DNA of 40,574 nucleotides from positions 1 through 40,574 of the forward strand of contig DATBDI010000456.1 in assembly GCA_036270025.1 (NCBI GenBank), read 5' to 3'. The position numbers and the translations under genes were made by a program. Shown here piece after piece: positions 3,307-34,633 of this stretch. A model generated the notes under the pieces. It worked only from the letters and a program-made list of their open reading frames with translations. It was not told the DNA's origin and did no database searches. The stretch comes from Candidatus Udaeobacter sp. (GTDB lineage Bacteria; Verrucomicrobiota; Verrucomicrobiia; Chthoniobacterales; UBA10450). Positions within the stretch are counted from its first letter, which is position 1. Each line of letters starts with the position of its first letter.

Positions 3307-3322
3307 CGTGTTTGGGGTCGCG

Positions 3323-4420: not shown

Positions 4421-4611
4421 ATGAACTCCTTTGCTGGTTGAGGGTCTTTACGTTTTTGATTTTATGTCAAGGAAACTGGTTGGCTTCTAAGTGGAAATTG
4501 CTTCGTTGATCATGATTTTATGAGCTTGGTCGCCGTCATATTCCGTTTCCTGAAGGATAGGCGGGCGTCGTTGGACCAACGTCAGACCATTATACATGGA
4601 AGAAGAAGGGT

Positions 4612-6048: not shown

Positions 6049-6057
6049 TGTTAGCTC

Positions 6058-11927: not shown

Positions 11928-14707
11928 CTTCCTCCTCTCATGTCCAGGCCCAGGCTACCGTGCTCCGGGAAACTCGGATCGTTATCGAGTTGGGGGATCT
12001 CCAACGGGCCGAGCAGCAGGATGCCCTTTTCCAGCTCCTGATTGGGTAGCTCATCAAAGCGTTGGAACATTGTTACTTTTACATTCTCGACCCCCGTCAC
12101 CGACTGCGCCGCGGCGATTAGTTTGCTAAGATAAATTCCTTCGCCAAAGGTCAGATTGTCGGGATGGAAAAAACCAAGACGCCCATCCGGCAGGACGCGG
12201 TTACTGAAGACTTCGAGCAAAGCCGCTTCCACCTGGCCCCGCAAATAATGTGGCAATACGCATATCGTCATTCCGATCTGGAGCGGGACATAGGTCGCTG
12301 GCTGCACCGCGAGGTCATAGCCCATCCGGCCATAGGGATAAAGACCGCGTTTGATCGCATGCAACAGTTTTTTGTTAGCTTCCTCGCTGCCGGCTGGATC
12401 AATCGCGACCCGCGCCTCATACCAGCTACCGGTCCAACGCAGGTCCGCCCGAGCCATATTACCCTGGCTTGTCGTAAGGGTGGCGTAGTCCTTGGCGGTG
12501 ATCGCCCGTTCCAACGTGTTACGAAATGCGCCCGGGGCATACAACTTCGCTTCCGCAATCGGCTCAGACGCGGTGCCGCCCTTGGCTGGAAGCGGATTAC
12601 GCGGAGTTAGATTCACGCCGCTTAGCATTGTCTTGCGCAGAACGAGGATGGTAATGGTGTCCGCCCCAACGTTACCAGCCGGGCCGTTTCCTACCCGGTA
12701 ACTCGCGATGAACCTTGTCCCCGCTTCGGGCAGTAACCCCAAATCACCGTCGCCGAAGCGAAGGTGTGCGCGACCTTCGTTATCCATTTCTACGACAAAT
12801 TGAAGATCGTCACTTTGACTGCTAAGCAGATCCCTGCGAGCACTCCATGCTTGAAGGAGGGCATTCAGGTCTGTGGTCAGCGCCGTCAGCAGGTCCAAAG
12901 ACGGCTCCCCTCCAACAACAAACGTGTTAAGCAAGTCGAGGGTTGTTTGTGAAAGCTTAGGACGCAAGGCAGCGCCAATCGGGTCGGCGTTATTTCGAAG
13001 TTTCGCAATGAGCGCGGTTGGGTCTTTTAAGTCGTTGCTCTCAAAGAGTGATACCAGAGCCTCCGGCGCGGCCGGGATGCTTTGCACTTTGATCTGCGGT
13101 TGTGCCGTTCGGGCATCCAGGTTGTTCGCACTAAATACCTCGGAAGCCGACTTATGCTTTGGAAGAGGGTTACTAAATGTAAGTGGCCGTCGCTCTAGAA
13201 TAGGCCGGTAGCGACCTGGCAGATAAGTCATTTCCACGGCGCTTCCTTCGCACTCACAAGTCCCTACCGCCACGATCCGCTCCACCAAGCCTAAGTCCTC
13301 CGGCGGATCAGTCGTCCTTCCGTTGTCCACCAGGACAACGTTGCCTGTAGCAACGCTCACGTTCGAGACAAACCTGCAATCGGGCGCGTCACGTCGCGCG
13401 GAAATACAGAGTGGAAACGGCAAGGCATCCGCAACTGCCCATTCGATCTCGACCACCGGCGTGCCATTCACCGGATCAACGATCGGGCGCACGCTTGTGA
13501 GTTGGACAGCATGACGCCGCTTTGGATCCGCATCAGCCCTCTGACCAGTCTTAGGCCCTAACACTTCTTCAAAGATAAGAACATTGCCGACCTTTAAGTC
13601 GAGTGTCCGTGGTCGCTCAGTCGGCGCCTTAGCGTCTTCCGGGTCATAATGCGTTTCGGCGGCCAAGGCCGGTCCTTCCGCGTTGGCCCAGCCGTCCAGC
13701 AAAGTCGCCCGCGTCGCTCCCCGGGGCAGACAGCATTCCTGGTTGTCCCAGCTATAGAAAAAGATTGTGCTATGCGCCGCGACCAGCTGAATAAGTTCCT
13801 TGTCGGTCGGCTCGAACACATCGTAGCTCGCCCCCGGCACATCTTGAAGGTCTTCCATCTTCGAGAGAGTCTTATTGGCAAAGCGCGCTTCGCCCGGCCT
13901 GGTGATGAAAAAACAATCGCTCAGGTCAAGCTCGGTATTATTATCCGTCGCTATGCTAACCCACGCGCGCGCGTTGCAGCCTTCATGCAGGAAATAATCG
14001 ACCAAACGAACATGGCGCCGCACCGAGATGCGTTCGCGCGCCGTGTCGAGATAGGCCTCGGTCGCGACCGCATCCTGGTAATAACTCAAATAGTCGCCGA
14101 CATAGGCCAGTAACTCGACCAGAGCAATGCCAATGTCCGGCACATGCCGCTCCTGCCAATCCGGCATGATGAGCGCCAGCCGGTCGAGGATAAGCTGGCG
14201 GAAACTGGAGTAGTCTTTCGCCAGGTAATTGATCTCCGGTTCGTCGCGCTTTTCGGGTGGACAAAGCTCCTCCTCCTTACAGTCGAAGTCGCTTGGGCAG
14301 CCCACCTTGAAACTAAACTCTGCATGCGAATAACGCGGATCCAATTTTTGAAACCGCTGGTCGTTTTGGGGCCAGTCTTCACCACCAACCAAGCGCAAGG
14401 TGTAAGTGGAGAAATCGCCCGCCTTATCGACCATCACTCGCAAGCAAGCGTCAAGGTTACTGCCCGTCGCGCGATCATCGCCGTGGTAGTCCACCTTTAC
14501 GACCTGGATGTCTGACACCCGCCTGCCGCCCTCGATCACCACGTCATCTTTCGTAAGTCCCTGCGGAATCAACCCGAAGAAATGAACGCACAACTGGCGC
14601 TGGTCGCCATCATCAATCACCTCGATGTAATCAATCCCGCTCCAACCCTGGCCGCGGTCGCGCTGGCGACGCCGTTCCAGCCTGCAAGTTAAGCTCGGGC
14701 TTTCCAT
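11924..14707 (-). CDS. Baseplate J / gp47 (T4 gp6-like, Afp11-like) family protein (927 aa)
   Basis: LAKDYSSFRQLILDRLALIMPDWQERHVPDIGIALVELLAYVGDYLSYYQDAVATEAYLDTA and C-terminal ITAKDYATLTT..ARADLRWTGSWYEARVAIDP are baseplate-J hallmarks. Confidence 0.85.
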   Translation of the reverse strand: MESPSLTCRLERRRQRDRGQGWSGIDYIEVIDDGDQRQLCVHFFGLIPQGLTKDDVVIEGGRRVSDIQVVKVDYHGDDRATGSNLDACLRVMVDKAGDFSTYTLRLVGGEDWPQNDQRFQKLDPRYSHAEFSFKVGCPSDFDCKEEELCPPEKRDEPEINYLAKDYSSFRQLILDRLALIMPDWQERHVPDIGIALVELLAYVGDYLSYYQDAVATEAYLDTARERISVRRHVRLVDYFLHEGCNARAWVSIATDNNTELDLSDCFFITRPGEARFANKTLSKMEDLQDVPGASYDVFEPTDKELIQLVAAHSTIFFYSWDNQECCLPRGATRATLLDGWANAEGPALAAETHYDPEDAKAPTERPRTLDLKVGNVLIFEEVLGPKTGQRADADPKRRHAVQLTSVRPIVDPVNGTPVVEIEWAVADALPFPLCISARRDAPDCRFVSNVSVATGNVVLVDNGRTTDPPEDLGLVERIVAVGTCECEGSAVEMTYLPGRYRPILERRPLTFSNPLPKHKSASEVFSANNLDARTAQPQIKVQSIPAAPEALVSLFESNDLKDPTALIAKLRNNADPIGAALRPKLSQTTLDLLNTFVVGGEPSLDLLTALTTDLNALLQAWSARRDLLSSQSDDLQFVVEMDNEGRAHLRFGDGDLGLLPEAGTRFIASYRVGNGPAGNVGADTITILVLRKTMLSGVNLTPRNPLPAKGGTASEPIAEAKLYAPGAFRNTLERAITAKDYATLTTSQGNMARADLRWTGSWYEARVAIDPAGSEEANKKLLHAIKRGLYPYGRMGYDLAVQPATYVPLQIGMTICVLPHYLRGQVEAALLEVFSNRVLPDGRLGFFHPDNLTFGEGIYLSKLIAAAQSVTGVENVKVTMFQRFDELPNQELEKGILLLGPLEIPQLDNDPSFPEHGSLGLDMRGGR

Positions 14708-15066
14708 TAGACTCCTGCCTTGGTAAAGGTGTCTATGCGCTGTTCGCCGGTGCGCTTTACCAGGTATTGCACAAGCACGCTTAGGGTCGCGTCCTCGCTT
14801 GTTACTTTTAGCGCACGCACATCGACCAGGTCACTTAGCCAGCGTTGGAGCCCGGCTTTAACTGTAAGTTCAACCGCCGTGGCCAGTTCCGGGCTGTTCG
14901 GCGCAAAGACCAACTGTAAAAGACCAGCGCCAAAATCCGGACGGTTCACGCGCTCCCCGGGATTGGTAAAAAGAAATTGCTCGATCATGTCACGAACGTG
15001 GTCGTCATCATCGGTCACAGCGGTGCGGCCGCGACTATCGAGATGAAAAGGGAAATCGATATTCAT
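14707..15066 (-). CDS. GPW/gp25 family baseplate wedge protein (Afp9-like)
   Basis: FPFHLDSRGRTAVTDDDDHVRDMIEQFLFTNPGERVNRPDFGAGLLQLVF is a typical gp25/GPW sequence. Confidence 0.9.
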   Translation of the reverse strand: MNIDFPFHLDSRGRTAVTDDDDHVRDMIEQFLFTNPGERVNRPDFGAGLLQLVFAPNSPELATAVELTVKAGLQRWLSDLVDVRALKVTSEDATLSVLVQYLVKRTGEQRIDTFTKAGV

Positions 15067-15073
15067 AACTCCA

Positions 15074-15397
15074 TTACATTGCAGTCACGCGCGTTTGAGT
15101 TACAACGATCATGAGCGGCGTGCCGGTAGGCGCGCAGATTGCCTGGCTGCTTTGCACGAGAAGCGGCTGCCCGTTTGATGTAACGCGAGTTGTGCCACTG
15201 AGCCACTGTGCGGTGACACATGGCCCATTCCCGGCCGTGGGAGGAGGAAGCGCGCAACCGGCCACAGCGTAAGGCGTAGTCATTAACACCGTTGGTTGGC
15301 CGCTGACTGTTACCCGCGGATTCGGCGCCGTGGGCTGCGCCTGACCGCCGTGCGCACAAAGCACCTGCGCCCCGACATGAACTAGAAAGCCTGGCAT
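15074..15397 (-). CDS. PAAR-like / DUF4280-like spike-tip protein (Afp10-like)
   Basis: 107 aa, VHVGAQVLCAHGGQA...VTVSGQPTVLMTTPYAVAGC...GPCVTAQW...VTSNGQPLLVQSSQAICAP. Lies between the spike and gp25 genes. Confidence 0.75.
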   Translation of the reverse strand: MPGFLVHVGAQVLCAHGGQAQPTAPNPRVTVSGQPTVLMTTPYAVAGCALPPPTAGNGPCVTAQWLSGTTRVTSNGQPLLVQSSQAICAPTGTPLMIVVTQTRVTAM

Positions 15398-15410
15398 AAT
15401 TGTTCCTTTC

Positions 15411-15950
15411 TCATATCACGACCAGCGCGCCTTTGTTGATTGTTACATTGGGACCGACCATCATAATGGAGGCGCCCTTTCCATTATCGAGATAGATGCC
15501 GCTGTCGTTCACCACGATCATCGCCTTGGTCGTGCTCTGTAGGATAACCCCACCCGTGGCCGGTGTCGGAGGCATATCACTGATCATCACTGAGTGCTGC
15601 AAGAGCGATTGAATAATGATATTCGGATCGGCCGGATTCCCGGCCTTAGCGAGTGTTGGAATATCTGACTGTGAACCCCAGCGGCAACCCACCCAGATAG
15701 GATGATCTGGATCACCGTGCTCAAACTCGACCCAGACCCCCGCACCAATCGGCGGCACCATATAGACTCCCATCGGCGGCCCAGTAGGACCGGCCAACGG
15801 CACACAAGGCTCGGCCCAGCTCGAAGGAATCGCGCCGAGAACGTCCGGGATCGTTAACTGCAATCGCCCGCGCTGCTCCGGGTCAACATTCTGCAGCACG
15901 GTGCCGCGATACTTACCGTAATAGGTGCGATTAGGGCTCGATCCGTTCAT
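15411..15950 (-). CDS. Phage baseplate assembly protein V / gp5 OB-fold spike (VgrG-like, Afp8-like)
   Basis: YYGKYRGTVLQNVDPEQRGRLQLTIPDVLG..WAEPCVPLAGP..GVYMVPPIGAGVWVEFEHGDPDHPIWVGCRW. Confidence 0.9.
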   Translation of the reverse strand: MNGSSPNRTYYGKYRGTVLQNVDPEQRGRLQLTIPDVLGAIPSSWAEPCVPLAGPTGPPMGVYMVPPIGAGVWVEFEHGDPDHPIWVGCRWGSQSDIPTLAKAGNPADPNIIIQSLLQHSVMISDMPPTPATGGVILQSTTKAMIVVNDSGIYLDNGKGASIMMVGPNVTINKGALVVI

Positions 15951-17074
15951 GGTCCGACCACTGGAGTTTGCGTAATCAACCCATCGCGCGACAAGGTGAA
16001 GGACTGCTTGTATTCGCCGCGCTTCAGATTGTGAGTGACGCTGTTGACGTAGTAGAAACCATCGTAAGCCGGTCCTGCCCCCCTTACTCCCACCACCGTG
16101 CGCATTCTCAGAATAGCGCCGTACCGGGTCACATTGAGAGAACCGTTGCCAGTGATCGCGTCCGCATTATTTAGCATCAATCCGAACGCCCGTTTCGCTA
16201 CCTCATCCGGAGCGAGGTTTGCCATATCGTCAGGGAACTCTATCTTCGCGGGTGGCGTTAAGCGCGCACCTAAGGGCGGGTGCAGCAGACTTATATTCGG
16301 GATCGGAATCGGAATCGGAATCTTTCCCGTAATGGGGTCAAGGATTGTAATGACTACAAGTTTCTTTGCCAGGCCGTCCAGGCTGAAGCTAAGTGAGTCC
16401 ACGTTAGTCTCCCAGTCCATATTAATGCTAAGCGCCGGCTGCGGCAGAGGTATCGGAAGATCAGGCCCGAAATAGGCTGTGCTGGTGAGCGGAAATGGCC
16501 CCGGCTCGATGTGGAAGACGTAGCCGGACTGCGCGGCCAGACCTTTGATGTAACTGAGATCGGTGCCGGTCTGAGTGGGAATCTCCTTCGTTGGACTCTT
16601 TACCGTAATGACGGGCGGCGGAATTACGTTTGGTACGATTCCAAACATCGCATACTTGCCGAGGATCATAAGGATACGGGCGGCGTCCGGCATGGCGGGA
16701 TATGGCAGTTTCATTTCCACTACGCCCATCAAGACACTTAGATCTTCGCCGGTAAGAGTTAGCTTTGACTGGCCCGGGTCATTGCTCGGTGAAACTTCGT
16801 GGCGGGTAATAACGCCGTCGGCGATGACTTGCGGGATACCGCGAAAAGTAACGATGATGACAACGCGAGTGATCATCGGGTCAAAGAACCCCGCGGGCAG
16901 CAGCGCTAGCTGGATGAGCGAAGTTTTGCTCACAGTGAGGGTCAATTGAAAACCGGTGCGGTCGCGCTGGCTGGTCACCTGCACGCTTTGGAGCGCTTCC
17001 ACCACCGGCAGCGGCGCGGGCAGAGGCACAGCCAGGGGGCCGATCAACAAAGTAAGATGGATACCATCAAGCAT
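15947..17074 (-). CDS. Baseplate hub protein, P2 gpD / T4 gp27-like (late control D-like)
   Basis: The track ORF extends to 17287, but the ATG at 17072-17074 (MLDGIHLTLLIGPL...) overlaps the upstream stop in AATGCTTGA. DLSYIKGLAAQSGYVFHIEPGP is hub-like. 4-nt overlap with the spike gene. Confidence 0.75.
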   Translation of the reverse strand: MLDGIHLTLLIGPLAVPLPAPLPVVEALQSVQVTSQRDRTGFQLTLTVSKTSLIQLALLPAGFFDPMITRVVIIVTFRGIPQVIADGVITRHEVSPSNDPGQSKLTLTGEDLSVLMGVVEMKLPYPAMPDAARILMILGKYAMFGIVPNVIPPPVITVKSPTKEIPTQTGTDLSYIKGLAAQSGYVFHIEPGPFPLTSTAYFGPDLPIPLPQPALSINMDWETNVDSLSFSLDGLAKKLVVITILDPITGKIPIPIPIPNISLLHPPLGARLTPPAKIEFPDDMANLAPDEVAKRAFGLMLNNADAITGNGSLNVTRYGAILRMRTVVGVRGAGPAYDGFYYVNSVTHNLKRGEYKQSFTLSRDGLITQTPVVGP

Positions 17075-17381
17075 TCGGTACTCCTGGTATTCCTTCTGGC
17101 AGAGTGATGCGCAGCCGCCGGCCAATCGTCTCTGTGAGTTCGTCGGGGCGCATCGCGCGGTTCGAATCACAAACGCGCCAGAACTGTTCTGGATCGCCCA
17201 GGTAACGCGCGGTGATATTGTCCAGACGATCGCCTTGTACCACCACATGCTCCTGCAACAGCGAGAAGCGCTCAGGCGGCGGGACAAAGCGGCGTCTAAT
17301 ATAGATTAGTGTGCGGCCGTCCTTCGTTTCCAGGGTCGCGGTCTGGATATTGTAATACCGGCTGGTCGGTGGGAAAGACAT
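17067..17381 (-). CDS. LysM-like tail protein (P2 gpX-like)
   Basis: VVQGDRLDNITARYLGDPEQFWRVCDSNRAMRPDEL is a LysM-type motif. AAGGA RBS. Confidence 0.7.
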   Translation of the reverse strand: MSFPPTSRYYNIQTATLETKDGRTLIYIRRRFVPPPERFSLLQEHVVVQGDRLDNITARYLGDPEQFWRVCDSNRAMRPDELTETIGRRLRITLPEGIPGVPNA

Positions 17382-17398
17382 GGTTGTCCTTGGGTTCG

Positions 17399-18046
17399 CT
17401 ACAGCTTCAATGCCGCGCCGATGTTCTGCGCGCTGTTAAACACGTTGGTGGTGGCCATGATCTCCTTGGCAATGTGATGGACCAGAAAAAGGGCCTCGCC
17501 GGGGCTGGTTACAGATAGGTCCTGGTAACTAAGAACAGTTAGCGATAACTCAACCTTGGCGCGGATCGGATTGAGTAACGGATCGTGTGCCTCCTCCGTG
17601 ATGCTAAGACTGGTGAGACGCACCGGCAGAACGCGCTGCGGCCCCCAGACGAACAGTGTCATGGGCGCTTCGACTGGAATCACCTCCACGGTGCCAATCA
17701 GGGAAAGGATGGTATTGGCAATCACCACCGCGCTCTTTGGGTATAGGATCATTTCCAGCGCGGCCAGCGTCGGATAAATACCCATCGTTGTGGCTAGCGG
17801 ATTGGCTTCCTCGAGCTGATCGGTTGCATCGATCTCAACACTTAGAGTGATCGTCTCCTTCGGCGCCCCGGTGAGCCGAAAAGCCTCGCCGCGGTCGCCT
17901 TCAGCGCTCACCGCGCGCGGCTCTAACTTTCGTGTCATCGTGTCCGGGTTGTATTGGAACACGACCACACTCGCGAGGGGGTTAAACGGGTCGAGCCCGA
18001 TGATGGCGCCTTTTAACAAGCGTGGTGAACCGGGGAAGCTGCTCAT
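17399..18046 (-). CDS. Contractile-injection-system tube-family protein (tube initiator / inner tube-baseplate adaptor, Afp5/7-like)
   Basis: LLKGAIIGLDPFNP..VVFQYNPDTMTRKLEPR...LFVWGPQRVLPVRLTSLSITEEAHDPLLNPIRAKVELSL matches the CIS-tube N-terminal domain pattern. Confidence 0.75.
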   Translation of the reverse strand: MSSFPGSPRLLKGAIIGLDPFNPLASVVVFQYNPDTMTRKLEPRAVSAEGDRGEAFRLTGAPKETITLSVEIDATDQLEEANPLATTMGIYPTLAALEMILYPKSAVVIANTILSLIGTVEVIPVEAPMTLFVWGPQRVLPVRLTSLSITEEAHDPLLNPIRAKVELSLTVLSYQDLSVTSPGEALFLVHHIAKEIMATTNVFNSAQNIGAALKL

Positions 18047-18103
18047 GGAATGTACAATCTAGTTCCTATCATCTTCATGAACTTCCTGCTGAATTCCATG
18101 CCG

Positions 18104-25813: not shown

Positions 25814-27165
25814 GCGATTGTCACCTTTTGGCTGGCGTCGAACGTCGGCGGCGTCACTGTTCTGTCTACCATGGGAAGATCGACTCCATCAACGCGGAGG
25901 CGAACGAGGTACTCGCCCAGTTCCGCCGCAGAAACCGGGAATAGGAACGTCAACTTATCAGAGCTGGTCGGTGGTTGAGCAGGAATCGCCGGTGGCGGAG
26001 GAGGTGCCTCTGGCGCAATCTGTCGGGCCGTTCCGAGCAAGAGAACCACCTGCTGATCAAAGCGCATGTGCGTGGGGTCGACCACGGCCAGTTTCACCTG
26101 AGGCTGGCAGGTCACCGCGAGCGTCACCTTGCCGCCAGCATCGCGTGGAATCGGATTGGCTGGCTCGATTTTCTGGATGCGTGGCGCCAGGGAGAGAGGA
26201 AGTTCGTTGGAGCTCCACGTTTGTGACGTTCCGTTTAGGGTTCGGTTAACAACGACCGCGACGGTGTAGAAGCCGGCTACCCAGGTGGTCTGAGCGGCAA
26301 CATCGTTAGGTAGAGTGACTTTGATGCCATCCTGGATCACCTGCACCGCGGCGGGCGGCAGCAAAATGGCGGGAGTATCGGCCCGCGAGTTGATTAACGT
26401 GAATCGCACCGCTGATAGGTTATTGAGGTTTTGCCCGGCAATCGTTAACTCGTCGCCCAGGAAGGCGCTGCTCTGCCGATTAGGCGGCAGCACCGACGTT
26501 ATAACAGGCAAGCTGTTCCCAGCTACCGCCGAAGGTCCGCTATCGTCCTTGCCGCGCGTCAACACCGGCAATGGCGCCTGCGAGGGTCGGGAGCTTTCGA
26601 TCAGGACAACTTCTACCCGATACGCCGACGAAATTCGGTATTGGGTCTGAAAGGCAGTCCAGAGTTTCGAGATTTCCTCGATCGACAATGGCTGGGGTGA
26701 GATGCGGACATGCTCCACCTGTTCGTACAGGTCATTTCCCCCAAGCGCAGCCCTGATGGCGGAGTGGTCGAGGACCGCGTTGTCATGAAAGATGCGCATG
26801 GCCTGCCCGAGGAGGATGTGCGCGGCAGTTTCATCATCGTTGTGGCCGTACGCACTGAGCAAATAATGGAGCGTCAACGCCACCGGCGGCTGCGCTATTT
26901 CCCCGGGGCGGGCCTTGCGCGGCATGTCCATGTTGCAAAACGCGGCGTTGGGAGCTGTCTGGTAGAGATAGATATTGACCTGATTAGCGGTCTCGGCGGA
27001 CGGGCGCGCCTTGTCGGGTGTTTTGGTCGTGACCGAGACGCTGCCCAAGCCTAATGAGCTCGGGATATCCGCTGGCAGGTTCGCCGTGAGTCCGCCGCTC
27101 GCGCTGTCCAGCATACTTCTGAGAGTGGAGGTGACTGCTGCTATTGCCAGTGAGTTGCTCATCAT
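25810..27165 (-). CDS. DUF4255-domain protein (Afp16/Pvc16-like tail terminator/cap)
   Basis: N-terminus MMSNSLAIAAVTSTLRSMLDSA...NIYLYQ...LTLHYLLSAYG is typical of DUF4255. 4-nt overlaps on both sides. Confidence 0.8.
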   Translation of the reverse strand: MMSNSLAIAAVTSTLRSMLDSASGGLTANLPADIPSSLGLGSVSVTTKTPDKARPSAETANQVNIYLYQTAPNAAFCNMDMPRKARPGEIAQPPVALTLHYLLSAYGHNDDETAAHILLGQAMRIFHDNAVLDHSAIRAALGGNDLYEQVEHVRISPQPLSIEEISKLWTAFQTQYRISSAYRVEVVLIESSRPSQAPLPVLTRGKDDSGPSAVAGNSLPVITSVLPPNRQSSAFLGDELTIAGQNLNNLSAVRFTLINSRADTPAILLPPAAVQVIQDGIKVTLPNDVAAQTTWVAGFYTVAVVVNRTLNGTSQTWSSNELPLSLAPRIQKIEPANPIPRDAGGKVTLAVTCQPQVKLAVVDPTHMRFDQQVVLLLGTARQIAPEAPPPPPAIPAQPPTSSDKLTFLFPVSAAELGEYLVRLRVDGVDLPMVDRTVTPPTFDASQKVTIA

Positions 27166-28232
27166 CGACCTCCTGCAGCGCGCTGGCGCAGATATTCGTC
27201 TAAGCTCATCCTTGGCACGGGGGCGGTCTGCGGCCGCGCCTGGACCTGCGGCGGCACAATGGCCCGCACCTCCACGCGGCCGATGGTCACATGAATGGAC
27301 TGTGCTTCGGTCGTAATTTGCTTGTTAGGACTTGGCAAGACACGTGGCAAGGCGATGATCGACGCGGGGACAATCGGCGCGGTCGGCGTAGCGAATGCTG
27401 GTTGTAACCGGCCTGTTCGGGCTTCATTCCCCGGAGCAGGTTCGTCGTGCATGTGAGGTTCGCGAACGATCGTCTTAGTAATTTCTTTCTCGATGACGGC
27501 GGGGGGCGCGTCCGAGCGTTTTCCCACCGGCTTCACCGGAGCGGACAAACTCGCGACGGGCGCGGCTGGCAGCGATTCAGGCTGCTCGGTACGGATGTGC
27601 TTAGCGTGCGTCGACGCTAGCGGGGCGGCGCCGATCTCGCGCATGGAATGCTCAGGGTCGCCCAGCGCGACCGACGGCGGCTCCGGTCGAGTCGCCCCGA
27701 CCAAATGCACGGGCGCGCTTTCGTCAAGTCTGTCATTGGCGTTACGCGGTTTTGAACCGGGGACTTCGTCGGCAGTAAGCGGTGCGACTCCCACGAGTTT
27801 TCGTGTCACCGCGCTTGGAAGCGTTTCGGCCGGGGTACTCGGCGACGGTTGGGCATGTGAAAGCTGTTTTACCGCAATCGGGTCGCCTGCGACACGGCCT
27901 TGCGTTTTTTCCGAAGGAGCGCCGTTATCATCAACGACCGGTCGCACTCGGGGTGGCTCGGTGCGGGTTACGGCGGGGCCCTGCGGTAAGAGCGGCTCAA
28001 TGGCCATTACACCCTGCTCTACCTTGCCACGCCAGAGCGACTGCAATTGCCCAAGCCGCTCCGCTGTTCGGTTTTCCACCTCGAGCTTGACTATTGGTAG
28101 CTCCGGCGTAGCGCTGCCACGAAAGATCGCTCCGCCGTTTACGGGCGGCTCGAAAATCGAGTGCACCATGGGACGCACCGCGTCAGTCGCGGAGAGGGAA
28201 CGCTTTACGAGATTGCCGAGGAAATCGCTCAT
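27162..28232 (-). CDS. Pro/Ala-rich hypothetical protein with short ordered termini; candidate tail-length determinant (Afp14 analogue) by position only
   Basis: N-terminus MSDFLGNLVKRSLSATDAVRPMVHSIFEP and C-terminus IHVTIGRVEVRAIVPP...MSLDEYLRQR flank about 280 aa of low-complexity P/A/S/T sequence. Confidence 0.55.
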   Translation of the reverse strand: MSDFLGNLVKRSLSATDAVRPMVHSIFEPPVNGGAIFRGSATPELPIVKLEVENRTAERLGQLQSLWRGKVEQGVMAIEPLLPQGPAVTRTEPPRVRPVVDDNGAPSEKTQGRVAGDPIAVKQLSHAQPSPSTPAETLPSAVTRKLVGVAPLTADEVPGSKPRNANDRLDESAPVHLVGATRPEPPSVALGDPEHSMREIGAAPLASTHAKHIRTEQPESLPAAPVASLSAPVKPVGKRSDAPPAVIEKEITKTIVREPHMHDEPAPGNEARTGRLQPAFATPTAPIVPASIIALPRVLPSPNKQITTEAQSIHVTIGRVEVRAIVPPQVQARPQTAPVPRMSLDEYLRQRAAGGR

Positions 28233-28963
28233 GGCTCGATCATCTCCAGGTACGCTTGACGTCGATACGGAGTGAGCGCGAGAACATCGGCCTCGCTCCA
28301 GCCGTACGCTGACGCAAGCGCATGCACTTCACGTAGGATGCGGCTGGCCCACGCGTGAATTTCCGTCCAAAAATACGAAACGATATCCAGTGGTGTCTGC
28401 CACGCGTGATGGCACTGCGGACAAGCCAACGCGACCTGCACATCGGCCTGCGGGTCGGCCTCGGCCATGCCTTGCGCGATTGCCGCCCCCACGTCAGCCG
28501 GCAATTCAGCGGTCGCAATCTCCTTGTCCGCGCACTGAGCCGTGAGCACACAGCGTTGCAGCAATTGTTGCCTGACCGTCTCGCCATCCATTGCGGGATC
28601 AAGAGTTGCCAGGTCGAGACTATTGGGCAGACGGAATTGCACTATGTAATCCGTGTGCGCAACCTCAAGAATTTGGTCCAGATCTTCCCAAGGTGGGGAA
28701 CGTATATCCGCTGCGTTGACCAAAAGCTCCAAGTGCGCTGCGCAAGCCGGACATGTCGCGATGCTCGCGAGCTGTGATCCAAAAGTTTGTTCCCGTAACG
28801 CCAGCAAAAGCATATCGCGCTGGCCGACGCTGAATTGCGCGAGTCGCTCGATCGGCGTCTCCGCGCAGCCCATGGCCAGGAGCGTGAGCGCGCGTTGCGC
28901 CAGCGACTGGCTGAGGCCGCGCTCCCACGCGGTCAAAAGGTCCGCCGCTGATAACGCGCGCAT
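28229..28963 (-). CDS. Conserved hypothetical eCIS protein with CPAC...CPQC pairs (possible zinc ribbon); assembly factor by position
   Basis: Track ORF directly after the tube gene. C-terminus AYGWSEADVLALTPYRRQAYLEMI. Confidence 0.6.
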   Translation of the reverse strand: MRALSAADLLTAWERGLSQSLAQRALTLLAMGCAETPIERLAQFSVGQRDMLLLALREQTFGSQLASIATCPACAAHLELLVNAADIRSPPWEDLDQILEVAHTDYIVQFRLPNSLDLATLDPAMDGETVRQQLLQRCVLTAQCADKEIATAELPADVGAAIAQGMAEADPQADVQVALACPQCHHAWQTPLDIVSYFWTEIHAWASRILREVHALASAYGWSEADVLALTPYRRQAYLEMIEP

Positions 28964-28972
28964 GGCGGATGG

Positions 28973-29503
28973 CTATGCTGGCTCGGTGAAGGTCGGCTCG
29001 GTCGGTTCGGGCACTTCGTAATCGCGCTCCCAGCCTTCGTTCTCCAGTTTGATGTGCTGGATAGCTACCGCGTTGGCATTGGCATCAAGGTCCGAAAGGG
29101 ACTGAAACTCTGAAACCCAGCAGCGATAAACCGTATATGCGATCACCTTCTGCCCCGCCTCGTTATAGACCTCTATGATGATGTCCTTGCGGAAGTCCTT
29201 GAGCGAGACCTCCTGGCCAAGTGCGTTGCCATAGTTCCAAACTTTGTTGGCCCACTGCTCAAAATCCTTGTCGTGGGTCACGCCCCGGTCGAGTGTGATT
29301 GCGTCGTATTCTGTGCGGCCTGGAGATTTGCGGCTACTGCTGGGGTCGCCGCCCTCGCGGTGCTTCACGACCTCGGTCGTGCGTTTGAGACCACTTACCT
29401 TGCTGATCCCTGCCACTGGGGTCGTGCTACCGACGAAGAAGACTCGAAACTTGAAGTTCTTATACGGATCGAAACGTGTGGTATTGACGGTGAATTGAGC
29501 CAT
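28973..29503 (-). CDS. Contractile tail tube protein (Afp1/Pvc1-like; T4 gp19 / TIGR02241-like)
   Basis: FDPYKNFKFRVFFVGSTTPVAGISKVSGLKRTTEVVKHREGGDPSSSRKSPGRTEYDAITLDRGVTHDKDFEQWANKV. Confidence 0.92.
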   Translation of the reverse strand: MAQFTVNTTRFDPYKNFKFRVFFVGSTTPVAGISKVSGLKRTTEVVKHREGGDPSSSRKSPGRTEYDAITLDRGVTHDKDFEQWANKVWNYGNALGQEVSLKDFRKDIIIEVYNEAGQKVIAYTVYRCWVSEFQSLSDLDANANAVAIQHIKLENEGWERDYEVPEPTEPTFTEPA

Positions 29504-29518
29504 GGAATTTTCCTCGGT

Positions 29519-31207
29519 TTAGGTTTCAATTTGTCCGGCCATTTGCTGGAGCTTGATAATGACGAACTCGGCCGGCTTCAGCGGCGCAAAGCCAACGATG
29601 ATATTGACGATCCCGAGATTAATGTCGTTCTGGGTCGTGCTTTCTTTGTCGCATTTGACGAAGTAGGCATCCTTGGGCGTCTGGCCTTGAAACGCACCCT
29701 GGCGGAAGAGGGTGTGCATAAACGCACCCACGTTGAGGCGAATCTGTGCCCAAAGAGGTTCGTCGTTGGGTTCGAACACAACCCACTGCGTGCCGCGATA
29801 GAGGCTTTCTTCGATGAACAGTGCCGTGCGGCGGACCGGGACGTATTTCCACTCGGAGGCGAGGCGATCGTCGCCTTGGAGGGTACGCGCGCCCCAAACG
29901 ATACGGCCAGCCGGAACCATGGTGCGCAAACAATTAACGCCGAGCGGATTCAGCTCACCGTTTTCGGGATCAGTCAAATCCACGCTCAGAGCGGGGACGT
30001 TGTTCAAGACGGCGTCCAACCCGGCGGGTGCTTTCCACACTCCGCGTTGCGTATCAGTGCGAGCAAAAATACCGGCGACTGCACCACAGGGAGCGAAGTA
30101 TTCAAACTGATTGTCCCGCAAAATATTGCGCTGCCTGAGACGTGGAAAATAGAGGGCTCCATTCTTGCTGGTTGTTCCCACACCCGCTGTGATTCCGGCC
30201 TTCGCGTCATCCTTTGTGGTCCAATCAGCAGGCGAATCAACGAGCAACATGGCTCGGCGTTTCTCGCAATAAGCTGCGGCCGCCGAAGTGAGATCCTGAT
30301 CGATATTCCCGGTCGCGAGATAAGGAGGGATGCAGAGAATGTTGAAGAGGTCGGCTTGCTCAAAAGCGTAGAGACCCTTCTTGTCTTGTTCGGCATTATT
30401 CGGTGCGAAGTCGTCTGCCAGAGTCAGTGCATCTCCGTCCGAAGCAGCGACCGCATCTTGTTTAGTTTTCAGGGTCGCTTTAGCTGCAGTTACAGCTTGG
30501 GTAAGGGTGTCGATCTCGTTTTGGGGCTTGCCGGCCGCAATCGCGTCGTCGAGTGCCTTTTGTTTAATCGCCACGTCCGCTTCGGCCGAGGTGATGTCAT
30601 CCTTAGCTTCGGAAATGGCAGGCGGGTTTGCAGGATCCAGCGTGCCATCCCAACGAACGAGCGTCGATTGGGCCTGCAGGACTTTGTCGATTCTTCGGGG
30701 ACTTTCTTTGACGGAAACATTACGGAAAACCTCGCTGCGTCCGCCCGGCTTTCCTTCAGAGACGGTCAGGTTAAAGAGATCAGCTTTTGCGAGTCCCATG
30801 CTCAGCGCCACTGCCTCGGAAACATCTGTGTCGACCGCGCCGCGCAAGTACTCTCCCCAGGAACCTTCATATGCAGCTTCAAGCTTGACTCCACCAAATG
30901 CTAGCTTGGCCTTGCCGGGCTTGGCGTTGTTTCCCGCCTCAGCGTGATACAGCCGCACGATAACTGCCTGGCTGCCGCCGTTCAGGTAAAAGTCGCGAAC
31001 GGCGTATCCCAGCGTGCTTTCAACCCACAGCCCGCCGAAGATTCGCTCAAAATCTCCGTAGCTGTTGATCGTCGTGGCTTTGTTCACTGGGCCACGCATC
31101 GCGCGTCCAACAAAAGCGGTGATAGAGGTCGCGACGCCGGTGATGGTGCGCACGCCACTGGGGATTTCTTCAATATAGACACCGGGATAGGTCAACGTGG
31201 CAGGCAT
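29519..31207 (-). CDS. Contractile tail sheath protein (Afp2/3-like)
   Basis: MPATLTYPGVYIEEIPSGVRTITGVATSITAFVGRA...GVNCLR..GRIVWGARTL. AAAGGA RBS. Confidence 0.95.
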   Translation of the reverse strand: MPATLTYPGVYIEEIPSGVRTITGVATSITAFVGRAMRGPVNKATTINSYGDFERIFGGLWVESTLGYAVRDFYLNGGSQAVIVRLYHAEAGNNAKPGKAKLAFGGVKLEAAYEGSWGEYLRGAVDTDVSEAVALSMGLAKADLFNLTVSEGKPGGRSEVFRNVSVKESPRRIDKVLQAQSTLVRWDGTLDPANPPAISEAKDDITSAEADVAIKQKALDDAIAAGKPQNEIDTLTQAVTAAKATLKTKQDAVAASDGDALTLADDFAPNNAEQDKKGLYAFEQADLFNILCIPPYLATGNIDQDLTSAAAAYCEKRRAMLLVDSPADWTTKDDAKAGITAGVGTTSKNGALYFPRLRQRNILRDNQFEYFAPCGAVAGIFARTDTQRGVWKAPAGLDAVLNNVPALSVDLTDPENGELNPLGVNCLRTMVPAGRIVWGARTLQGDDRLASEWKYVPVRRTALFIEESLYRGTQWVVFEPNDEPLWAQIRLNVGAFMHTLFRQGAFQGQTPKDAYFVKCDKESTTQNDINLGIVNIIVGFAPLKPAEFVIIKLQQMAGQIET

Positions 31208-31226: not shown

Positions 31227-31508
31227 TTAGATGGTCTTACGGGGTTGGGGCGGTTGCTGAAGCGTCGCGAGATATTGCGGGGAGACGTGGTAAAATACTT
31301 TGCCGTCCGCAGATCGCTTTTGTTCGAGAAAACCTTGTTCGACGAGTTGCGAGACGGTCTTCGCAATTTTCGGCGTCCAGTTGCGAATGCAGGCGTCGAG
31401 TACCCACCACTGAAGGATGTCTTCGATCGTGCCCTGCGCACCCGGCCGCTTGGCCAGATAATCGAGAATTTCTGGCGCTGGAGATGGAAGCGAAGGGTCG
31501 ATAAGCAC
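31227..31508 (-). CDS. Hypothetical 93-aa protein, first ORF downstream of the sigma-54 promoter (GTG start)
   Basis: Track ORF, co-oriented, ends 19 nt before the sheath ATG. No family recognised. The RBS is not convincing. Confidence 0.45.
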   Translation of the reverse strand: MLIDPSLPSPAPEILDYLAKRPGAQGTIEDILQWWVLDACIRNWTPKIAKTVSQLVEQGFLEQKRSADGKVFYHVSPQYLATLQQPPQPRKTI

Positions 31509-31537
31509 GCATTAGGGACGTCAGTCGTCCTTTCCTA

Positions 31538-31551
31538 GCAATCGACGTACC
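31538..31551 (-). promoter_or_regulatory. Sigma-54 (-24/-12) promoter for the eCIS operon
   Basis: The minus strand reads AGGTACGTCGATTGCT against consensus TGGCACG-N4-TTGCW, with correct GG..GC spacing. It lies about 30 nt upstream of the first operon ORF, next to a sigma-54 activator gene. Confidence 0.65.
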
Positions 31552-31702
31552 TAAAAATTTCGGCTTCCGTGTACGAACCCGAATTAATGTGCCTCCGGCG
31601 GCTCGCGCGAGTTTCAATTTCTCCTCTGAAAATGGACCGGTCCGAAAGGGTCCCCGTCCGGGCCCGACCGTGAATCGGCATTGAATTCGAGAATCCCAGA
31701 GA

Positions 31703-31716
31703 GGACAATTTTGTCC
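31703..31716. promoter_or_regulatory. Inverted repeat GGACAA-TT-TTGTCC, candidate enhancer (UAS) site
   Basis: Perfect 6-bp arms. Shares the core GACAA-N2-TTGTC with 31774..31785. Lies about 160 bp upstream of the -24 element. Confidence 0.45.
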
Positions 31717-31773
31717 TACCATCTTCGCAAATATTTTCGGCCGAGGTACGCTTACTCTTCGGGCAGCAGCAAT

Positions 31774-31785
31774 GACAAATTTGTC
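31774..31785. promoter_or_regulatory. Perfect palindrome GACAAATTTGTC, candidate enhancer (UAS) site
   Basis: Same core as 31703..31716, with centres 70 bp apart. Lies between the activator gene stop and the sigma-54 promoter. Confidence 0.45.
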
Positions 31786-31867
31786 CACGCACCAGCGTTC
31801 GTTTGCCCGACGAAAGGCGTGGTAGCTGGAAGACGTAGCCGATGCTCTTACTCTGTGGGCGCGAGCC

Positions 31868-33304
31868 TCAATCGCGGCGGGCGCGGGTGAGCAGGCCGTG
31901 CTTACGCAAGAGTTGCCAAAACGCCCGGCGATTTTTCTTCGCCGCGGATGCAGCGCGAGTGATGTTTCCATCGTGCGCACGCAAAACCGTCGCAAGAAAG
32001 TCATGCTCAAATCGCTGAACCGCACGGGACTTCATCGCTTGGAACGACTGCTCTTCCGCAGCAAAGCTGTCGGGAAGGTCAAGATCCGAGGGCTCTATCG
32101 AGTCGTGATCCGAAAAAACGATGGCGCGCGTGAGCACGTTCTGGAGTTCGCGTACATTACCCGGCCACGAATGACTCAGCAGGCGATTAAGAGCAGCGAG
32201 CGAGAGATTTTTTGGTTGCGTCTCGGCGAGCGCGGCCTGCTTCTCCAGGAAGTCGTGGGTGAGCAAGAGGATATCGCCGCGACGTTCGCGCAACGGTGGA
32301 AGCATGAGTGTGAGTACGCTTAGTCGGTAGAACAAATCCTCACGGAATTTTCCCAAGGATAGAATCTGGTTGAAATCGGCGTTCGCTGCCGCAACCACCC
32401 GAATGTTTGCGTGAACGATCTGCTGCGAGCCCACGGAACGGTATTCTCCGTCCTGTAAGAAACGGAGCAGCTTCACTTGCGCTTGGGATGTAAAGCAGTC
32501 GATCTCATCCAAAAACAAAGTACCGCCCTCGGCCTCGCGTATCAGCCCGGCTCGGTCAGATATCGCACCAGTAAATGCTCCCCGTTTATGACCAAAGATC
32601 TCGCTCTCCACGAGGTTTTCTGGAAGCGCACCGCAATTAACCGGGACGAATGGCCGGTCTGCTCGCGGACTTAGATAATGAATCGCGCGCGCGAAGAGTT
32701 CCTTGCCGGTACCGGATTCGCCGGAGATCAGTACCGTCGCGTCACACTGTGCGAATCGCGGTACGCACCGGACTTTCTCGAGAAACGCAGGGCTCTCGCC
32801 AATGATCTGTTTGAGCCCAATATCCTCCTTGAGCTTTTGCACAAGCGCATCGCCGCGGCACGCAACTAGCGCCTGGCGCTTAAGTCGTGGTAACAATTCG
32901 GAACGTCGCAACGGGGGCAGCAGGAAATCTGAGGCGCCCATCTCGAGCACTGGGAAAACATCGAACGAATCCGGATGCGTCGTAGTCACGAGCACCGGGC
33001 GGTGCGGGAAAGTCCCCTGAAGCGACGCAAAAAAAAGTTCCAGTTTCGTTGCTTCAAAAGAATCGAGAGTGGCCACGACGACGTCGGGATTGCCAAAGCC
33101 GGCCGCATGCGGCTTGAGGCTGGATTCGGCGCAATATTCGAGCCGCGCGAACGTGAAGCCCTCCGCTTCCACAAGCAATCTCTCGAGCGAGTCGGCCAGA
33201 ACAGTCGTCTCGGGTTGGGAGACGATCGCCACTCGAATCGCTGGACTAGCCATTCGACCCGCTAGATTCTCTTTCGTCAGATTTGAGAGTTGCGGGGACT
33301 CCAT
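31868..33304 (-). CDS. Sigma-54-dependent transcriptional activator (NtrC-family bEBP) with a degenerate receiver-like N-terminal domain
   Basis: GESGTGKELFARAIH (Walker A), GAFTGA loop (HKRGAFTGA), GTLFLDEID, FREDLFYRL and a C-terminal Fis-type HTH (GNITRAASAAKKNRRAFWQLLRKHGL). ATG 33253 is an alternative start. Confidence 0.9.
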   Translation of the reverse strand: MESPQLSNLTKENLAGRMASPAIRVAIVSQPETTVLADSLERLLVEAEGFTFARLEYCAESSLKPHAAGFGNPDVVVATLDSFEATKLELFFASLQGTFPHRPVLVTTTHPDSFDVFPVLEMGASDFLLPPLRRSELLPRLKRQALVACRGDALVQKLKEDIGLKQIIGESPAFLEKVRCVPRFAQCDATVLISGESGTGKELFARAIHYLSPRADRPFVPVNCGALPENLVESEIFGHKRGAFTGAISDRAGLIREAEGGTLFLDEIDCFTSQAQVKLLRFLQDGEYRSVGSQQIVHANIRVVAAANADFNQILSLGKFREDLFYRLSVLTLMLPPLRERRGDILLLTHDFLEKQAALAETQPKNLSLAALNRLLSHSWPGNVRELQNVLTRAIVFSDHDSIEPSDLDLPDSFAAEEQSFQAMKSRAVQRFEHDFLATVLRAHDGNITRAASAAKKNRRAFWQLLRKHGLLTRARRD

Positions 33305-33695
33305 ACGCGTCGATATCGGAAGAATTGTTGACTACAATCCAGTTCCCCGAAGAGCCGAGAACAGACACTGCTGCAAGACGCTTTACAGTAAGCGACTCAC
33401 ATCGGCTGGCTCTCAGTTCCAGTTGGACCTGGAGATCGCGTTAAGCGGCGGTTCCAGCGAAGGTCCAGCGCCCTCGGGCTTTTCAGCTCGGCCGAAGATG
33501 CGTTGAAACGTCGGGTGACGTAATCAGGAAAATCCCTAAAAAAATCGTTGCACCTTGTCAAGATTTAATATTTTGCCCGGCCTCGGGTGCTCGGCGCCGC
33601 CATCCTGGGCTTTTTGCCGGCGCGGATCGCGATCGGCGAAATTTACGCCGGGCAGCGATTCCCGCAATCCTCACACACGTGGCGATTCTGACGCT

Positions 33696-34211
33696 TTACG
33701 ATTGCTCAGCTTTCATGAAGCTGATGTCACCGCTGCGTTCGATGCGCGCGAATTTGATTTGCGAGAGGTCCTCGGTTTTGGCTTCGAGTCGCATGTCTTC
33801 CTCGAGATCGTGCTGGGAAATCTGGTTCCAGCGCATTGTTTTGTGCTGGATCCTGCCGTTCACGACAAGCACCGCCGGCTTTCCTTTAACAAGGATTCCA
33901 AAGCTGTGTGAGTAGTAAGCCGCCAGCCCGAAGAGCCGGTGCAGCAATACCAGAACGAATCCGCCACCGAGCGTTGCAAAGAACGGTCCAGAACCGTTAA
34001 TTGCGCGTGCCAGCATTGAACCAAGGATAACAATCAGAACGGCGTCGAAGGCCGTCTTCTCCGCAAGAGAACGCTTGCTGGTAAGTCGCACAATGACAAT
34101 CGTCACGACGAAGACAAGTATCCCGCGGATTGAAACCTGCAGGAATGTCAGCTGTTTTGGCTCGATGCCGATGCCAAGTAACGTTTGAAGTAATTGTGAA
34201 AACGTGTTCAT
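33696..34211 (-). CDS. DUF421 (YetF-like) membrane protein
   Basis: N-terminal TM helices (FLQVSIRGILVFVVTIVIVRL, AVLIVILGSMLA) and a C-terminal soluble domain ending ARIERSGDISF, recognised as the DUF421 pattern. Confidence 0.65.
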   Translation of the reverse strand: MNTFSQLLQTLLGIGIEPKQLTFLQVSIRGILVFVVTIVIVRLTSKRSLAEKTAFDAVLIVILGSMLARAINGSGPFFATLGGGFVLVLLHRLFGLAAYYSHSFGILVKGKPAVLVVNGRIQHKTMRWNQISQHDLEEDMRLEAKTEDLSQIKFARIERSGDISFMKAEQS

Positions 34212-34333
34212 AGCTCAACCTTCCATTACCGGAGAAAACTTCCAGACGCGCTCATATCAAGGCAGGCAAGCAGACTTAAATCCAACTGGCGCGCGAAACG
34301 CGTTCTTATGATGAACCTAGACGGAGGTCATCG

Positions 34334-34564
34334 ATGGCAAGAGGAAGCAAAGAGAAATACACATCCAAGCAGAAAAGGAAGGCATCGAAGATTGAGAGAG
34401 GTTACAAAAAGCGTGGCGTCAGCAGTAAGGAAGCCGAGCGCCGGGCGTGGGCGACGGTAAACAAGTCAGATAAAGGTGGAAGAAAAAAAGGCGGCGGAGG
34501 CCGCGGGAAAAAACGCAGCACATCAAGTTCTCGTAAAGGCGGAAGAAAAGGCGGCCGGAAATAA
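34334..34564 (+). CDS. Small basic stress-associated protein (family often annotated 'plasmid stabilization protein')
   Basis: KYTSKQKRKASKIERGYKKRGVSSKEAERRAWATVNK followed by a Gly/Lys/Arg tail. GGAGG RBS. Confidence 0.65.
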   Translation: MARGSKEKYTSKQKRKASKIERGYKKRGVSSKEAERRAWATVNKSDKGGRKKGGGGRGKKRSTSSSRKGGRKGGRK

Positions 34565-34633
34565 GGCTCGCAGGCGCCCTACAACGCGAACATTGCGCCA
34601 ACAGCCCATGGAAGTGCTGGCTAAGCGAACTTA

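Follow-up and report, generated by a model that had tools for sequence, protein, structure and literature searches.

A predicted sigma-54 switch with its own activator gene in front of the eCIS operon of a Candidatus Udaeobacter

In Candidatus Udaeobacter sp. a gap of 359 bp separates the gene of an enhancer-binding protein (bEBP) from an eCIS operon, and this gap is probably the control region of that operon, which, judging from the window and from related loci, would work as a dedicated sigma-54 switch. The gap lies in the stretch of 40,574 nucleotides analysed here (contig DATBDI010000456.1 of assembly GCA_036270025.1; hereafter the window) and contains, in the order in which they are met on the minus strand, a distal palindrome, a proximal palindrome, the conserved block CATTTTCAGAGGAGAAATTGAAAC and a -24/-12 element. 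These elements share a clear pattern of conservation and a fixed geometry, and activator gene, promoter, small first gene and eCIS genes are invariably linked in the related loci.

The eCIS operon itself, i.e., its structural and toxin genes, occupies positions 943..31207 on the minus strand, with short gaps between the genes, as determined by Pfam scans. Going away from the gap, it encodes, all on this strand, the sheath (29519-31207), a gp19-type tube protein (28973-29503), a T4_baseplate protein (28229-28963), a Pvc16_N protein (25810-27165) and an AAA ATPase (23630-25813), followed by eCIS_core (DUF4157) proteins at 21960-22862 (a sub-threshold match), 20728-21840 and 18651-20795. Further along are a CIS_tube-like protein (17399-18046, sub-threshold), the spike (15411-15950), a DUF4280 protein (15074-15397, sub-threshold), gp25 (14707-15066), Baseplate_J (8256-11927), a DUF6519 protein (4612-6048) and a metallopeptidase (3323-4420), and the last gene of the operon encodes another eCIS_core protein (943-3306). 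By the component genes that are present, from which the class is read, the operon encodes an eCIS of the Afp/PVC type. Earlier work (Geller et al., 2021; PMC8213781) included a test of an eCIS toxin of “Ca. Udaeobacter copiosus”.

The activator gene (31868..33304, minus strand) encodes a protein of 478 amino acids with a receiver-like N-terminal domain, an AAA+ domain with the GAFTGA motif, an AAA lid and, at the C-terminus, a putative, divergent HTH of the Fis type. The Pfam models PF00158 (Sigma54_activat) and PF25601 (AAA_lid_14) scored 1.8e-63 and 1.5e-21, respectively, and the translation contains GESGTGKE, LFLDEID and HKRGAFTGA, all of which are invariant in 13 family members. Judging from its translation, none of the catalytic motifs of a bEBP is missing from the activator, and its AAA+ core aligns with the solved structures of NifA, NtrC1, ZraR, LuxO, FleQ, PspF and DctD. 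The C-terminal 60 residues give a partial, sub-threshold match to HTH_8 (E 7e-4; 19.7 bits vs. a cut-off of 22 bits), while the full-length NCBIfam models of NtrC-family regulators (GlrR, AtoC and the PEP-CTERM regulator) align as far as residue 470-471 of the bEBP. Toward the C-terminus, GNITRAA..KKNRRAFWQLLRKH is nearly invariant, and the recognition helix, KKNRRAFWQLLRKHGL in the window, has the form [GK]K[DNE]RR.F..LL[KR]K[HY].L across eCIS-linked loci. No identical copy of the bEBP of the window was found by exact look-up among the contigs on record; relatives with 78-89% identity are many in soil metagenomes.

The N-terminal domain of this activator has the fold of a receiver. A model of residues 1-166 (pLDDT 64) matched receiver domains with E values of 7e-6 to 1e-3, the fold matches comprising WspR, HemR, VicR, DctD, FleR and the receiver-like domains of CpaE-type proteins, which we take to be non-phosphorylated receiver-like domains. 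Throughout the bEBP family, the residues needed for phosphorylation, i.e., the acidic pair, a phospho-acceptor Asp that is invariant and the Lys usually conserved, are missing: the expected DD of a receiver is replaced by S-Q, C-G or C-E, the only Asp nearby (in ATLDS) is a Ser or Gly in P0107 and P0119, and the DFLLPPL segment contains no Lys. The residue test for NtrC-type response regulators was, accordingly, negative for this receiver fold, and no histidine kinase was found among the ORFs scanned with Pfam, a scan that left aside several smaller ORFs. Since the receiver-like domain is devoid of the phosphorylation residues, the signal that activates the protein is probably not phosphotransfer from a histidine kinase but a ligand or a protein partner.

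The loci with which the window was compared derive from metagenome assemblies and belong mostly to one clade (Ca. Udaeobacter / Chthoniobacterales) with bEBPs that are 71-89% identical. An exact-protein look-up provided six contigs with the order bEBP, gap, small ORF and eCIS, and a metagenome scan with an alignment of the small protein added 80 loci to the earlier ones. Wherever at least 700 nt of upstream sequence was available (63 loci), the bEBP gene is directly upstream and on the same strand (63/63), and the gap measures 308-422 nt. Farther upstream, beyond the bEBP gene, the genes vary from contig to contig, and the same cassette precedes eCIS operons of differing gene order. Identity to the window ranges from 48 to 84% among 58 unique gap sequences, and their mean column conservation is 0.73, with the motif columns reaching 0.93-1.0. 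It should be kept in mind that the 74 loci are related and that part of this conservation is, therefore, due to shared ancestry.

An earlier note on this DNA, made from the letters of the window, reported a gap of ca. 360 bp after a bEBP gene with GAFTGA and, on the minus strand, the element AGGTACG-TCGA-TTGCT with -24/-12 spacing at ca. 30 nt before the first operon ORF. All of this is confirmed by our measurements. The stop codon of the bEBP gene ends at 31868 and the GTG of the first gene is at 31508, leaving 359 bp on the minus strand, and HKRGAFTGA is indeed encoded. The element, AGGTACGTCGATTGCT, was located at 31552-31537; its GG (31551-31550) and GC (31539-31538) are separated by exactly 10 nt, and it agrees with TGGCACG-N4-TTGCW at 10 of the 12 specified positions. 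It is on the same strand as the operon, with the C of the -12 GC (31538) 30 nt before the GTG at 31508. This GTG is in frame and is found within the conserved AATGNGTGC in nearly all loci; it fixes the start of the first gene and, consequently, the figure of ca. 30 nt is right if counted from the -12 element.

By itself, the promoter match is not significant in a window of 40 kb: GGNAC-N5-TTGC was found once vs. 1.69 times expected by chance, and, at up to 2 mismatches, there are 8 matches to the 16-mer consensus vs. 7.7 expected. What makes the promoter significant is where it lies and how well related loci have conserved it. GG-N10-GC occurs at the same distance from the codons of a conserved EILDYL in 73 of the 74 distinct related loci, and in all 73 the GG, the GC, a pyrimidine at -23 and a T or A at -11 are retained; the A at -22 and the T at -14 are each present in 72 and the G at -20 in 68, and the four spacer bases vary. 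This column profile tracks the published consensus TGGCACG-N4-TTGCW by position, which is the pattern expected of a sigma-54 promoter, and we infer from it that sigma-54 is used here. At the level of the phylum, RpoN is present in 7 out of 7 Verrucomicrobia genomes tabulated (PMC3372290, Table 1, as read). From the usual geometry of sigma-54 promoters, transcription would be predicted to start on the minus strand at 31526 (±2 nt), i.e., ca. 12 nt after the C of the -12 element and ca. 18 nt before the GTG.

Upstream of this promoter are two palindromes of 14 bp and of the form GGACAAAWTTGTCC, both putative upstream activator sites on the minus strand. The proximal one, GGACAAAATTGTCC (31703..31716), is a perfect 14-mer with its centre at about -183, and the distal one, GGACAAATTTGTCA (31773..31786), has one mismatch and its centre at about -253. 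The earlier note had listed two GACAA-N2-TTGTC sites, 70 bp apart and 160-230 bp upstream, and this description holds: the centres are 70 bp apart, a spacing that does not correspond to an integral number of helical turns, and are situated ca. 158 and ca. 228 bp upstream of the -24 GG, within the span of roughly 100-250 bp expected of bEBP enhancer sites. The pair is far beyond chance: the core GACAANNTTGTC is present exactly twice in the window (31704-31715 and 31774-31785), where 0.03 are expected by chance, none of 100 shuffles gave two, and no further sites within 2 mismatches of the 14-mer palindrome were found elsewhere in the window. No other 14-nt window of the gap is as conserved as the proximal palindrome (0.93), and the distal palindrome, with a mean column conservation of 0.93, ranks 4 or better of 346 gap windows. 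With up to 2 mismatches allowed, 56 out of 66 related loci contain both palindromes, 9 contain one and 1 contains none, and they start 161-166 nt (proximal) and 232-238 nt (distal) from the GG. A divergent subclade has GGAYAAAA..TGTCCT at the proximal position and half-sites farther upstream. Sites at about -183 and -253 are farther upstream than in many textbook cases. We nevertheless infer, from their setting, that both palindromes are bound by the HTH of the adjacent bEBP.

The block CATTTTCAGAGGAGAAATTGAAAC (31611..31634, minus strand; about -85 to -108), which separates the palindromes from the promoter, has a mean conservation of 0.86, rank 10 of 336 windows in the gap, and is retained by the divergent subclade as TTCTCCGAGGAGRAA. 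An IHF site between enhancer and promoter is frequent but not obligatory; the IHF consensus WATCAANNNNTTR had no match within 1 mismatch in the gap. Neither was a sigma-70-like promoter found on the minus strand in the gap but, as the scan was a simple one, this absence of a competing promoter is weak evidence. A terminator scan of the gap on the relevant strand revealed no terminator-like structure after the bEBP gene and, therefore, read-through from the activator's own promoter could also feed the operon. No RNA family was matched in an Rfam search of the gap. Two open frames were considered and rejected. An ORF of 262 amino acids (31237-32025, minus strand) spans the whole gap and is not a gene, with 1-nt indels between related loci and protein conservation limited to a frame of 93 amino acids. 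A TTG-initiated frame after a GAGGAG block was ruled out on the same grounds.

This 93-aa frame is the first gene of the operon (31227..31508, minus strand; GTG start). It encodes a conserved protein, possibly winged-helix-like, with homologues that are 64-73% identical in related loci; there are 217 homologues in all, one of them labelled Chthoniobacterales. Its model has a pLDDT of 77 and gives weak fold matches, mostly to winged-helix proteins, with a best E value of 0.08. Because these matches are just weak ones of the winged-helix type, the protein was not called a regulator.

More distant loci were obtained by a scan of viral-labelled contigs with an alignment of the bEBP, which resulted in 80 bEBP loci. 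In the most similar of these (L100, L101, L102 and L164), the bEBPs are 43-50% identical and adjoin eCIS genes; the bEBP genes of L116, L126 and L128 also adjoin eCIS genes. L101, L102, L128 and L164, with bEBPs 37-50% identical, possess TGGC[AC][CTA]-N5-TTGC right behind the activator gene, the types being TGGCAT-N5-TTGC, TGGCCC-N5-TTGC and TGGCCA-N5-TTGC. These promoter-like elements (TGGCATAGGACTTGC in L101, TGGCATGGGCCTTGC in L102, TGGCCATGCGGTTGC in L164 and TGGCCCGCCATTTGC in L128) are all within ca. 100 nt of the first ORF on the eCIS side; the background of the pattern is 13 matches in 1.59 Mb of strand sequence of this set. L100 has a weaker TGGCGT-N5-GTGC. A homologue of the 93-aa protein comes first after the promoter in L100, L101, L102 and L164. 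The repeated palindromes upstream in the distant loci are their own: TGCGGC-N8-GCCGCAGC occurs three times in L100, with spacings of 22 and 70 bp, and TGGGTC-N7-AGCCCAC twice in L102, and the recognition helices of the L100 and L102 bEBPs differ from that of the window. The architecture is thus conserved and the sequences are not, and common descent by itself does not account for this. Four divergent eCIS loci were obtained, in addition, from viral contigs scanned with the sheath; those of them with upstream sequence have neither a bEBP nor a promoter of this type, which means that not every eCIS has the cassette.

Our results thus favor, as the likely reading, a gate on eCIS production that consists of a dedicated activator and sigma-54. 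The earlier note had recognized the classical layout of an enhancer and a -24/-12 promoter with an adjacent bEBP, and had predicted that a dedicated sigma-54 activator gates particle production. The former is upheld by the comparison (promoter in 73/74, palindromes in 56/66 and bEBP in 63/63 loci), and the latter receives support from it and from the distant loci with promoters of their own. In the proposed mechanism, sigma-54 RNA polymerase would bind the -24 GG (31551-31550) and the -12 GC (31539-31538) and be held there as a closed complex, while dimers of the activator would occupy the two GGACAAAWTTGTCC palindromes at about -183 and -253 via their C-terminal HTH. The activator would assemble into a ring, contact the polymerase by DNA looping and open the promoter by ATP hydrolysis, and transcription would then proceed from near 31526 through the 93-aa gene into the sheath, tube, baseplate and toxin genes.

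Other explanations have to be weighed against this gate. The sigma-54 promoter may be real and the palindromes may be operators of another protein, either the 93-aa product, which would then exert feedback, or an unlinked repressor, with the bEBP acting from other sites or from solution. We regard this as unlikely. The fact that the 93-aa gene is always first after the promoter, also in the distant loci, would suit such an operator, as would the weak winged-helix-type matches of its model, but with a best E value of 0.08 these matches fall short of significance. The palindromes are farther upstream than many activator sites and the HTH of the bEBP is a sub-threshold HTH_8 match; however, two dyad sites upstream of a -24/-12 element, beside a bEBP with a conserved HTH, represent the standard activator arrangement, and both the HTH and the sites are nearly invariant in the clade. 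In the distant loci, sites and HTH helix change together, which is indirect support for the bEBP as the binder, but the small protein changes along with them and, hence, the pairing does not discriminate between the two proteins.

It is very improbable, in our view, that the operon is fed mainly by read-through from a sigma-70-type promoter upstream of the bEBP gene and that GG-N10-GC and the blocks in the gap are RNA-level or other signals. The conserved TTGACA and the long conserved leader upstream of the bEBP gene (see below), the lack of a terminator-like structure behind it and a -24/-12 match that by itself is not significant in the window would all be compatible with this. Yet, from one position to the next, conservation mirrors the sigma-54 consensus and the spacer varies, the distant loci have TGGC..-N5-TTGC at the same place amid unrelated flanks, and no Rfam family was recognized in the gap. 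Moreover, the bEBP gene is kept beside the operon in 63 out of 63 loci, where it would be purposeless without such a promoter. Hardly any weight can be given to the idea that the motifs are without function and that their conservation merely reflects the shared ancestry of close loci. Most comparison loci do come from one clade, with bEBPs that are 71-89% identical, but the gap has diverged enough for footprints to emerge (mean 0.73, the least similar sequence at 48%, vs. 0.93-1.0 for the motif columns), and loci with bEBPs of only 37-50% identity repeat the architecture in different sequences, by which this idea is largely refuted.

The region upstream of the bEBP gene (33305..33561, minus strand) is itself conserved. 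It starts with a conserved TTGACA (33561-33556), upstream of which the conservation ends (alignment A7), and continues as a highly conserved non-coding leader of ca. 250 nt; in an alignment of 21 unique sequences, many columns of the leader are conserved at ≥97%. An Rfam scan of the leader returned just a chance-level match to RT-6 (14.7 bits vs. a gathering score of 46.7; E 0.96). A structured RNA was rejected, with no covariation (covariation term +2.05) and a folding z-score of -1.18; the leader contains no ORF, and its substitutions show no clear periodicity of 3 nt. With regard to autoregulation, a search upstream of the bEBP gene that allowed 3 mismatches revealed no palindrome-like site.

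A wider and much more tentative proposal is that the cassette of activator, sigma-54 promoter and 93-aa gene is specific to a subset of eCIS that is broad and spans several lineages, that its first product may feed back on the phosphorylation-dead receiver domain of the activator and that the leader of ca. 250 nt may set the expression of the activator; we see this as a possibility on the doubtful side. If true, the feedback by the first-gene product would make particle production depend on a signal of assembly or stress. PspA acting on PspF and HrpV acting on HrpS are likenesses for such feedback. A further likeness is Hcp acting on VasH (PMC13584744).

Known systems offer both likenesses and differences. 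The pairing of sigma-54 with a bEBP from the cluster itself is established for T6SS: VasH of Vibrio cholerae and Sfa2 of the Pseudomonas aeruginosa H2-T6SS have their genes in T6SS clusters and activate T6SS promoters that depend on RpoN (PMC13584744; PMC8855297). As in these cases, the bEBP gene of the window lies in or beside a contractile injection cluster and would act with sigma-54 on the genes of the machine. However, the target here is an extracellular system of the Afp/PVC type (Pvc16_N, DUF4157, AAA ATPase) and not a T6SS, and it is the shared AAA+ core by which the activators are likened. The input domains also differ: Sfa2 has a GAF domain and the regulatory domain of VasH senses Hcp (PMC13584744), whereas the activator studied here has a receiver fold. 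Enhancers of the NtrC/DctD class likewise have two dyad sites upstream of a -24/-12 promoter, and the looping mechanism that we propose is the same as theirs. In contrast to that class, the receiver of our bEBP has no acidic pocket, phospho-Asp or Lys, which makes activation by a histidine kinase unlikely, the sites are at about -183 and -253 and 70 bp apart, and the recognition helix differs from the canonical HTH_8. FleQ is a sigma-54 activator with an N-terminal receiver fold that has no phosphorylation residues, and such a domain implies a partner protein or a small ligand. Unlike for FleQ, the target genes are unrelated here, and c-di-GMP or a FleN-like partner form no part of our evidence.

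The earlier note was not aware of a characterized equivalent for an eCIS. This stands insofar as, in the literature searched, we found no paper that links sigma-54, RpoN or an enhancer-binding protein to eCIS; Chen et al. (2019) make no reference to sigma factors, and the paper on the Geobacter RpoN regulon does not mention phage-tail genes. It needs to be amended in one respect, since Sigma54_activat is listed among the domains that neighbor eCIS, without comment or discussion, in the supplementary table of Geller et al. (2021; PMC8213781) with 49 genes, an odds ratio of 1.59, 4 phyla and the label ‘Shell’ (columns as read). Two examples of Sigma54_activat there, Ppro_0378 and Lcho_3032 (the latter from Leptothrix), both have a small ORF behind them, with afp16 following Lcho_3033 (PMC8213781); the gaps in Ppro_0378-0379 and Lcho_3032-3034 measure 403 and 220 bp, respectively, and these neighborhoods have the same gene order as the locus in the window. 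The association of sigma-54 activators with eCIS is, therefore, already in public tables, and what is newly described is the promoter, the sites and the cassette, with a classical mechanism.

What can be read from the sequence is a complete, conserved cis/trans module: an activator gene, two putative sites for its product, a sigma-54 promoter and a first gene. As sigma-54 promoters are silent without an activator, the module predicts that eCIS production is tight and gated by a signal. Besides T6SS, eCIS would be a further kind of contractile injection machine with a tie to sigma-54. Some of the most abundant bacteria in soil are Ca. Udaeobacter and related Chthoniobacterales. The module would thus provide a testable on-switch for the eCIS of abundant, uncultured soil bacteria, and its parts (the promoter and the activator minus its receiver domain) could be rebuilt in a heterologous host for forced eCIS expression and for a search for the natural signal.

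Regulators of other types have been named at eCIS loci, i.e., GerE/LuxR-type and BTAD regulators and the RfaH/AnfA1 anti-terminators (Geller et al., 2021; PMC8213781). The present case resembles these in that a regulator gene is found beside the eCIS operon but differs from them, as they are sigma-70-type activators or elongation factors. One of the related loci (L008) contains, inside the operon, a paralogue of the NusG family, the family that includes RfaH.

The first gene of the eCIS operon, which encodes a protein of 93 amino acids (window 31227-31508, minus strand), is conserved, with 217 homologues. Its position directly after the sigma-54 promoter is constant and this includes the distant eCIS-linked loci, where the homologues are 27-41% identical (L100, 6010-6300; L101, 2616-2882; L102, 3769-4104; L164, 6801-7115). 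The predicted structure of the protein (pLDDT 77) produced only weak fold matches of the winged-helix type, and one homologue carries the JGI name Fur-like regulator. The same cassette of sigma-54 activator (bEBP) gene, promoter and small ORF was encountered upstream of differently ordered eCIS operons in two related loci, i.e., L026, with a divergent sheath that is preceded by a 281-aa gene of no assigned identity (2839-5643), and L044, where Pvc16_N comes first (1305-2893). The cassette appears to be common to several eCIS subtypes of this clade. In one related locus (L008), the small ORF is separated from the sheath gene by a paralogue of the NusG family (PF02357, 5e-13; 8113-8634), to which RfaH also belongs. 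The sigma-54 cassette is thereby supplemented with a factor of the anti-termination type.

The genomic contexts of the cassette are varied. Past the bEBP gene, the window (33696-35696) and the related locus L006 (4240-5473) share a syntenic flank of DUF2383, a DAO-Rieske oxidoreductase and topoisomerase IB, from which the bEBP gene is separated in the window by two additional genes (YetF/DUF421 and SDR); the flanks in the other loci are unrelated to it.

Repeated palindromes upstream of a -24/-12 element also occur in two of the distant loci, each with its own motif: three copies of TGCGGC-N8-GCCGCAGC in L100 (5802-5913), with spacings of 22 and 70 bp, and two copies of TGGGTC-N7-AGCCCAC in L102 (3523-3635), 94 bp apart. 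The 70-bp spacing is common to the palindromes of L100 and those of the window. Between the palindromes and the promoter of the window lies a conserved block, CATTTTCAGAGGAGAAATTGAAAC (31611-31634, minus strand), which is retained as TTCTCCGAGGAGRAA in the divergent subclade. This block does not match the consensus of an IHF site, nor does a conserved ORF start there. A 262-aa ORF (31237-32025, minus strand) that is open through the whole control gap and into both adjoining genes was rejected as an artefact of base composition because 1-nt indels disrupt its frame in related loci. A second GG-N10-GC match, TGGACCGTTCTTTGCA (33975-33990, minus strand), is located within the YetF-like gene; as the expected number of such matches in the window is 7.7, it is probably fortuitous.

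The bEBP gene itself is preceded by a non-coding leader of ca. 250 nt (33305-33561, minus strand). This leader surpasses the eCIS control gap in conservation: many of its columns reach ≥97% among 21 unique sequences. The conserved stretch begins with a conserved TTGACA (33561-33556) and conservation ends sharply just upstream of it. A search against Rfam yielded no credible match to the leader, neither covariation nor an ORF was found in it, and its folding z-score is -1.18. Expression of the activator may be set by this conserved leader.

Four proteins in the window contain eCIS_core (DUF4157), one of them as a sub-threshold match, and one of the four additionally possesses DUF6973; a matrixin/astacin-like metallopeptidase is encoded nearby (943-3306, 3323-4420, 18651-20795, 20728-21840 and 21960-22862, all on the minus strand). 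The C-terminal parts of these proteins had no match in Pfam. The eCIS_core proteins and the metallopeptidase are candidate toxins or toxin-loading proteins.
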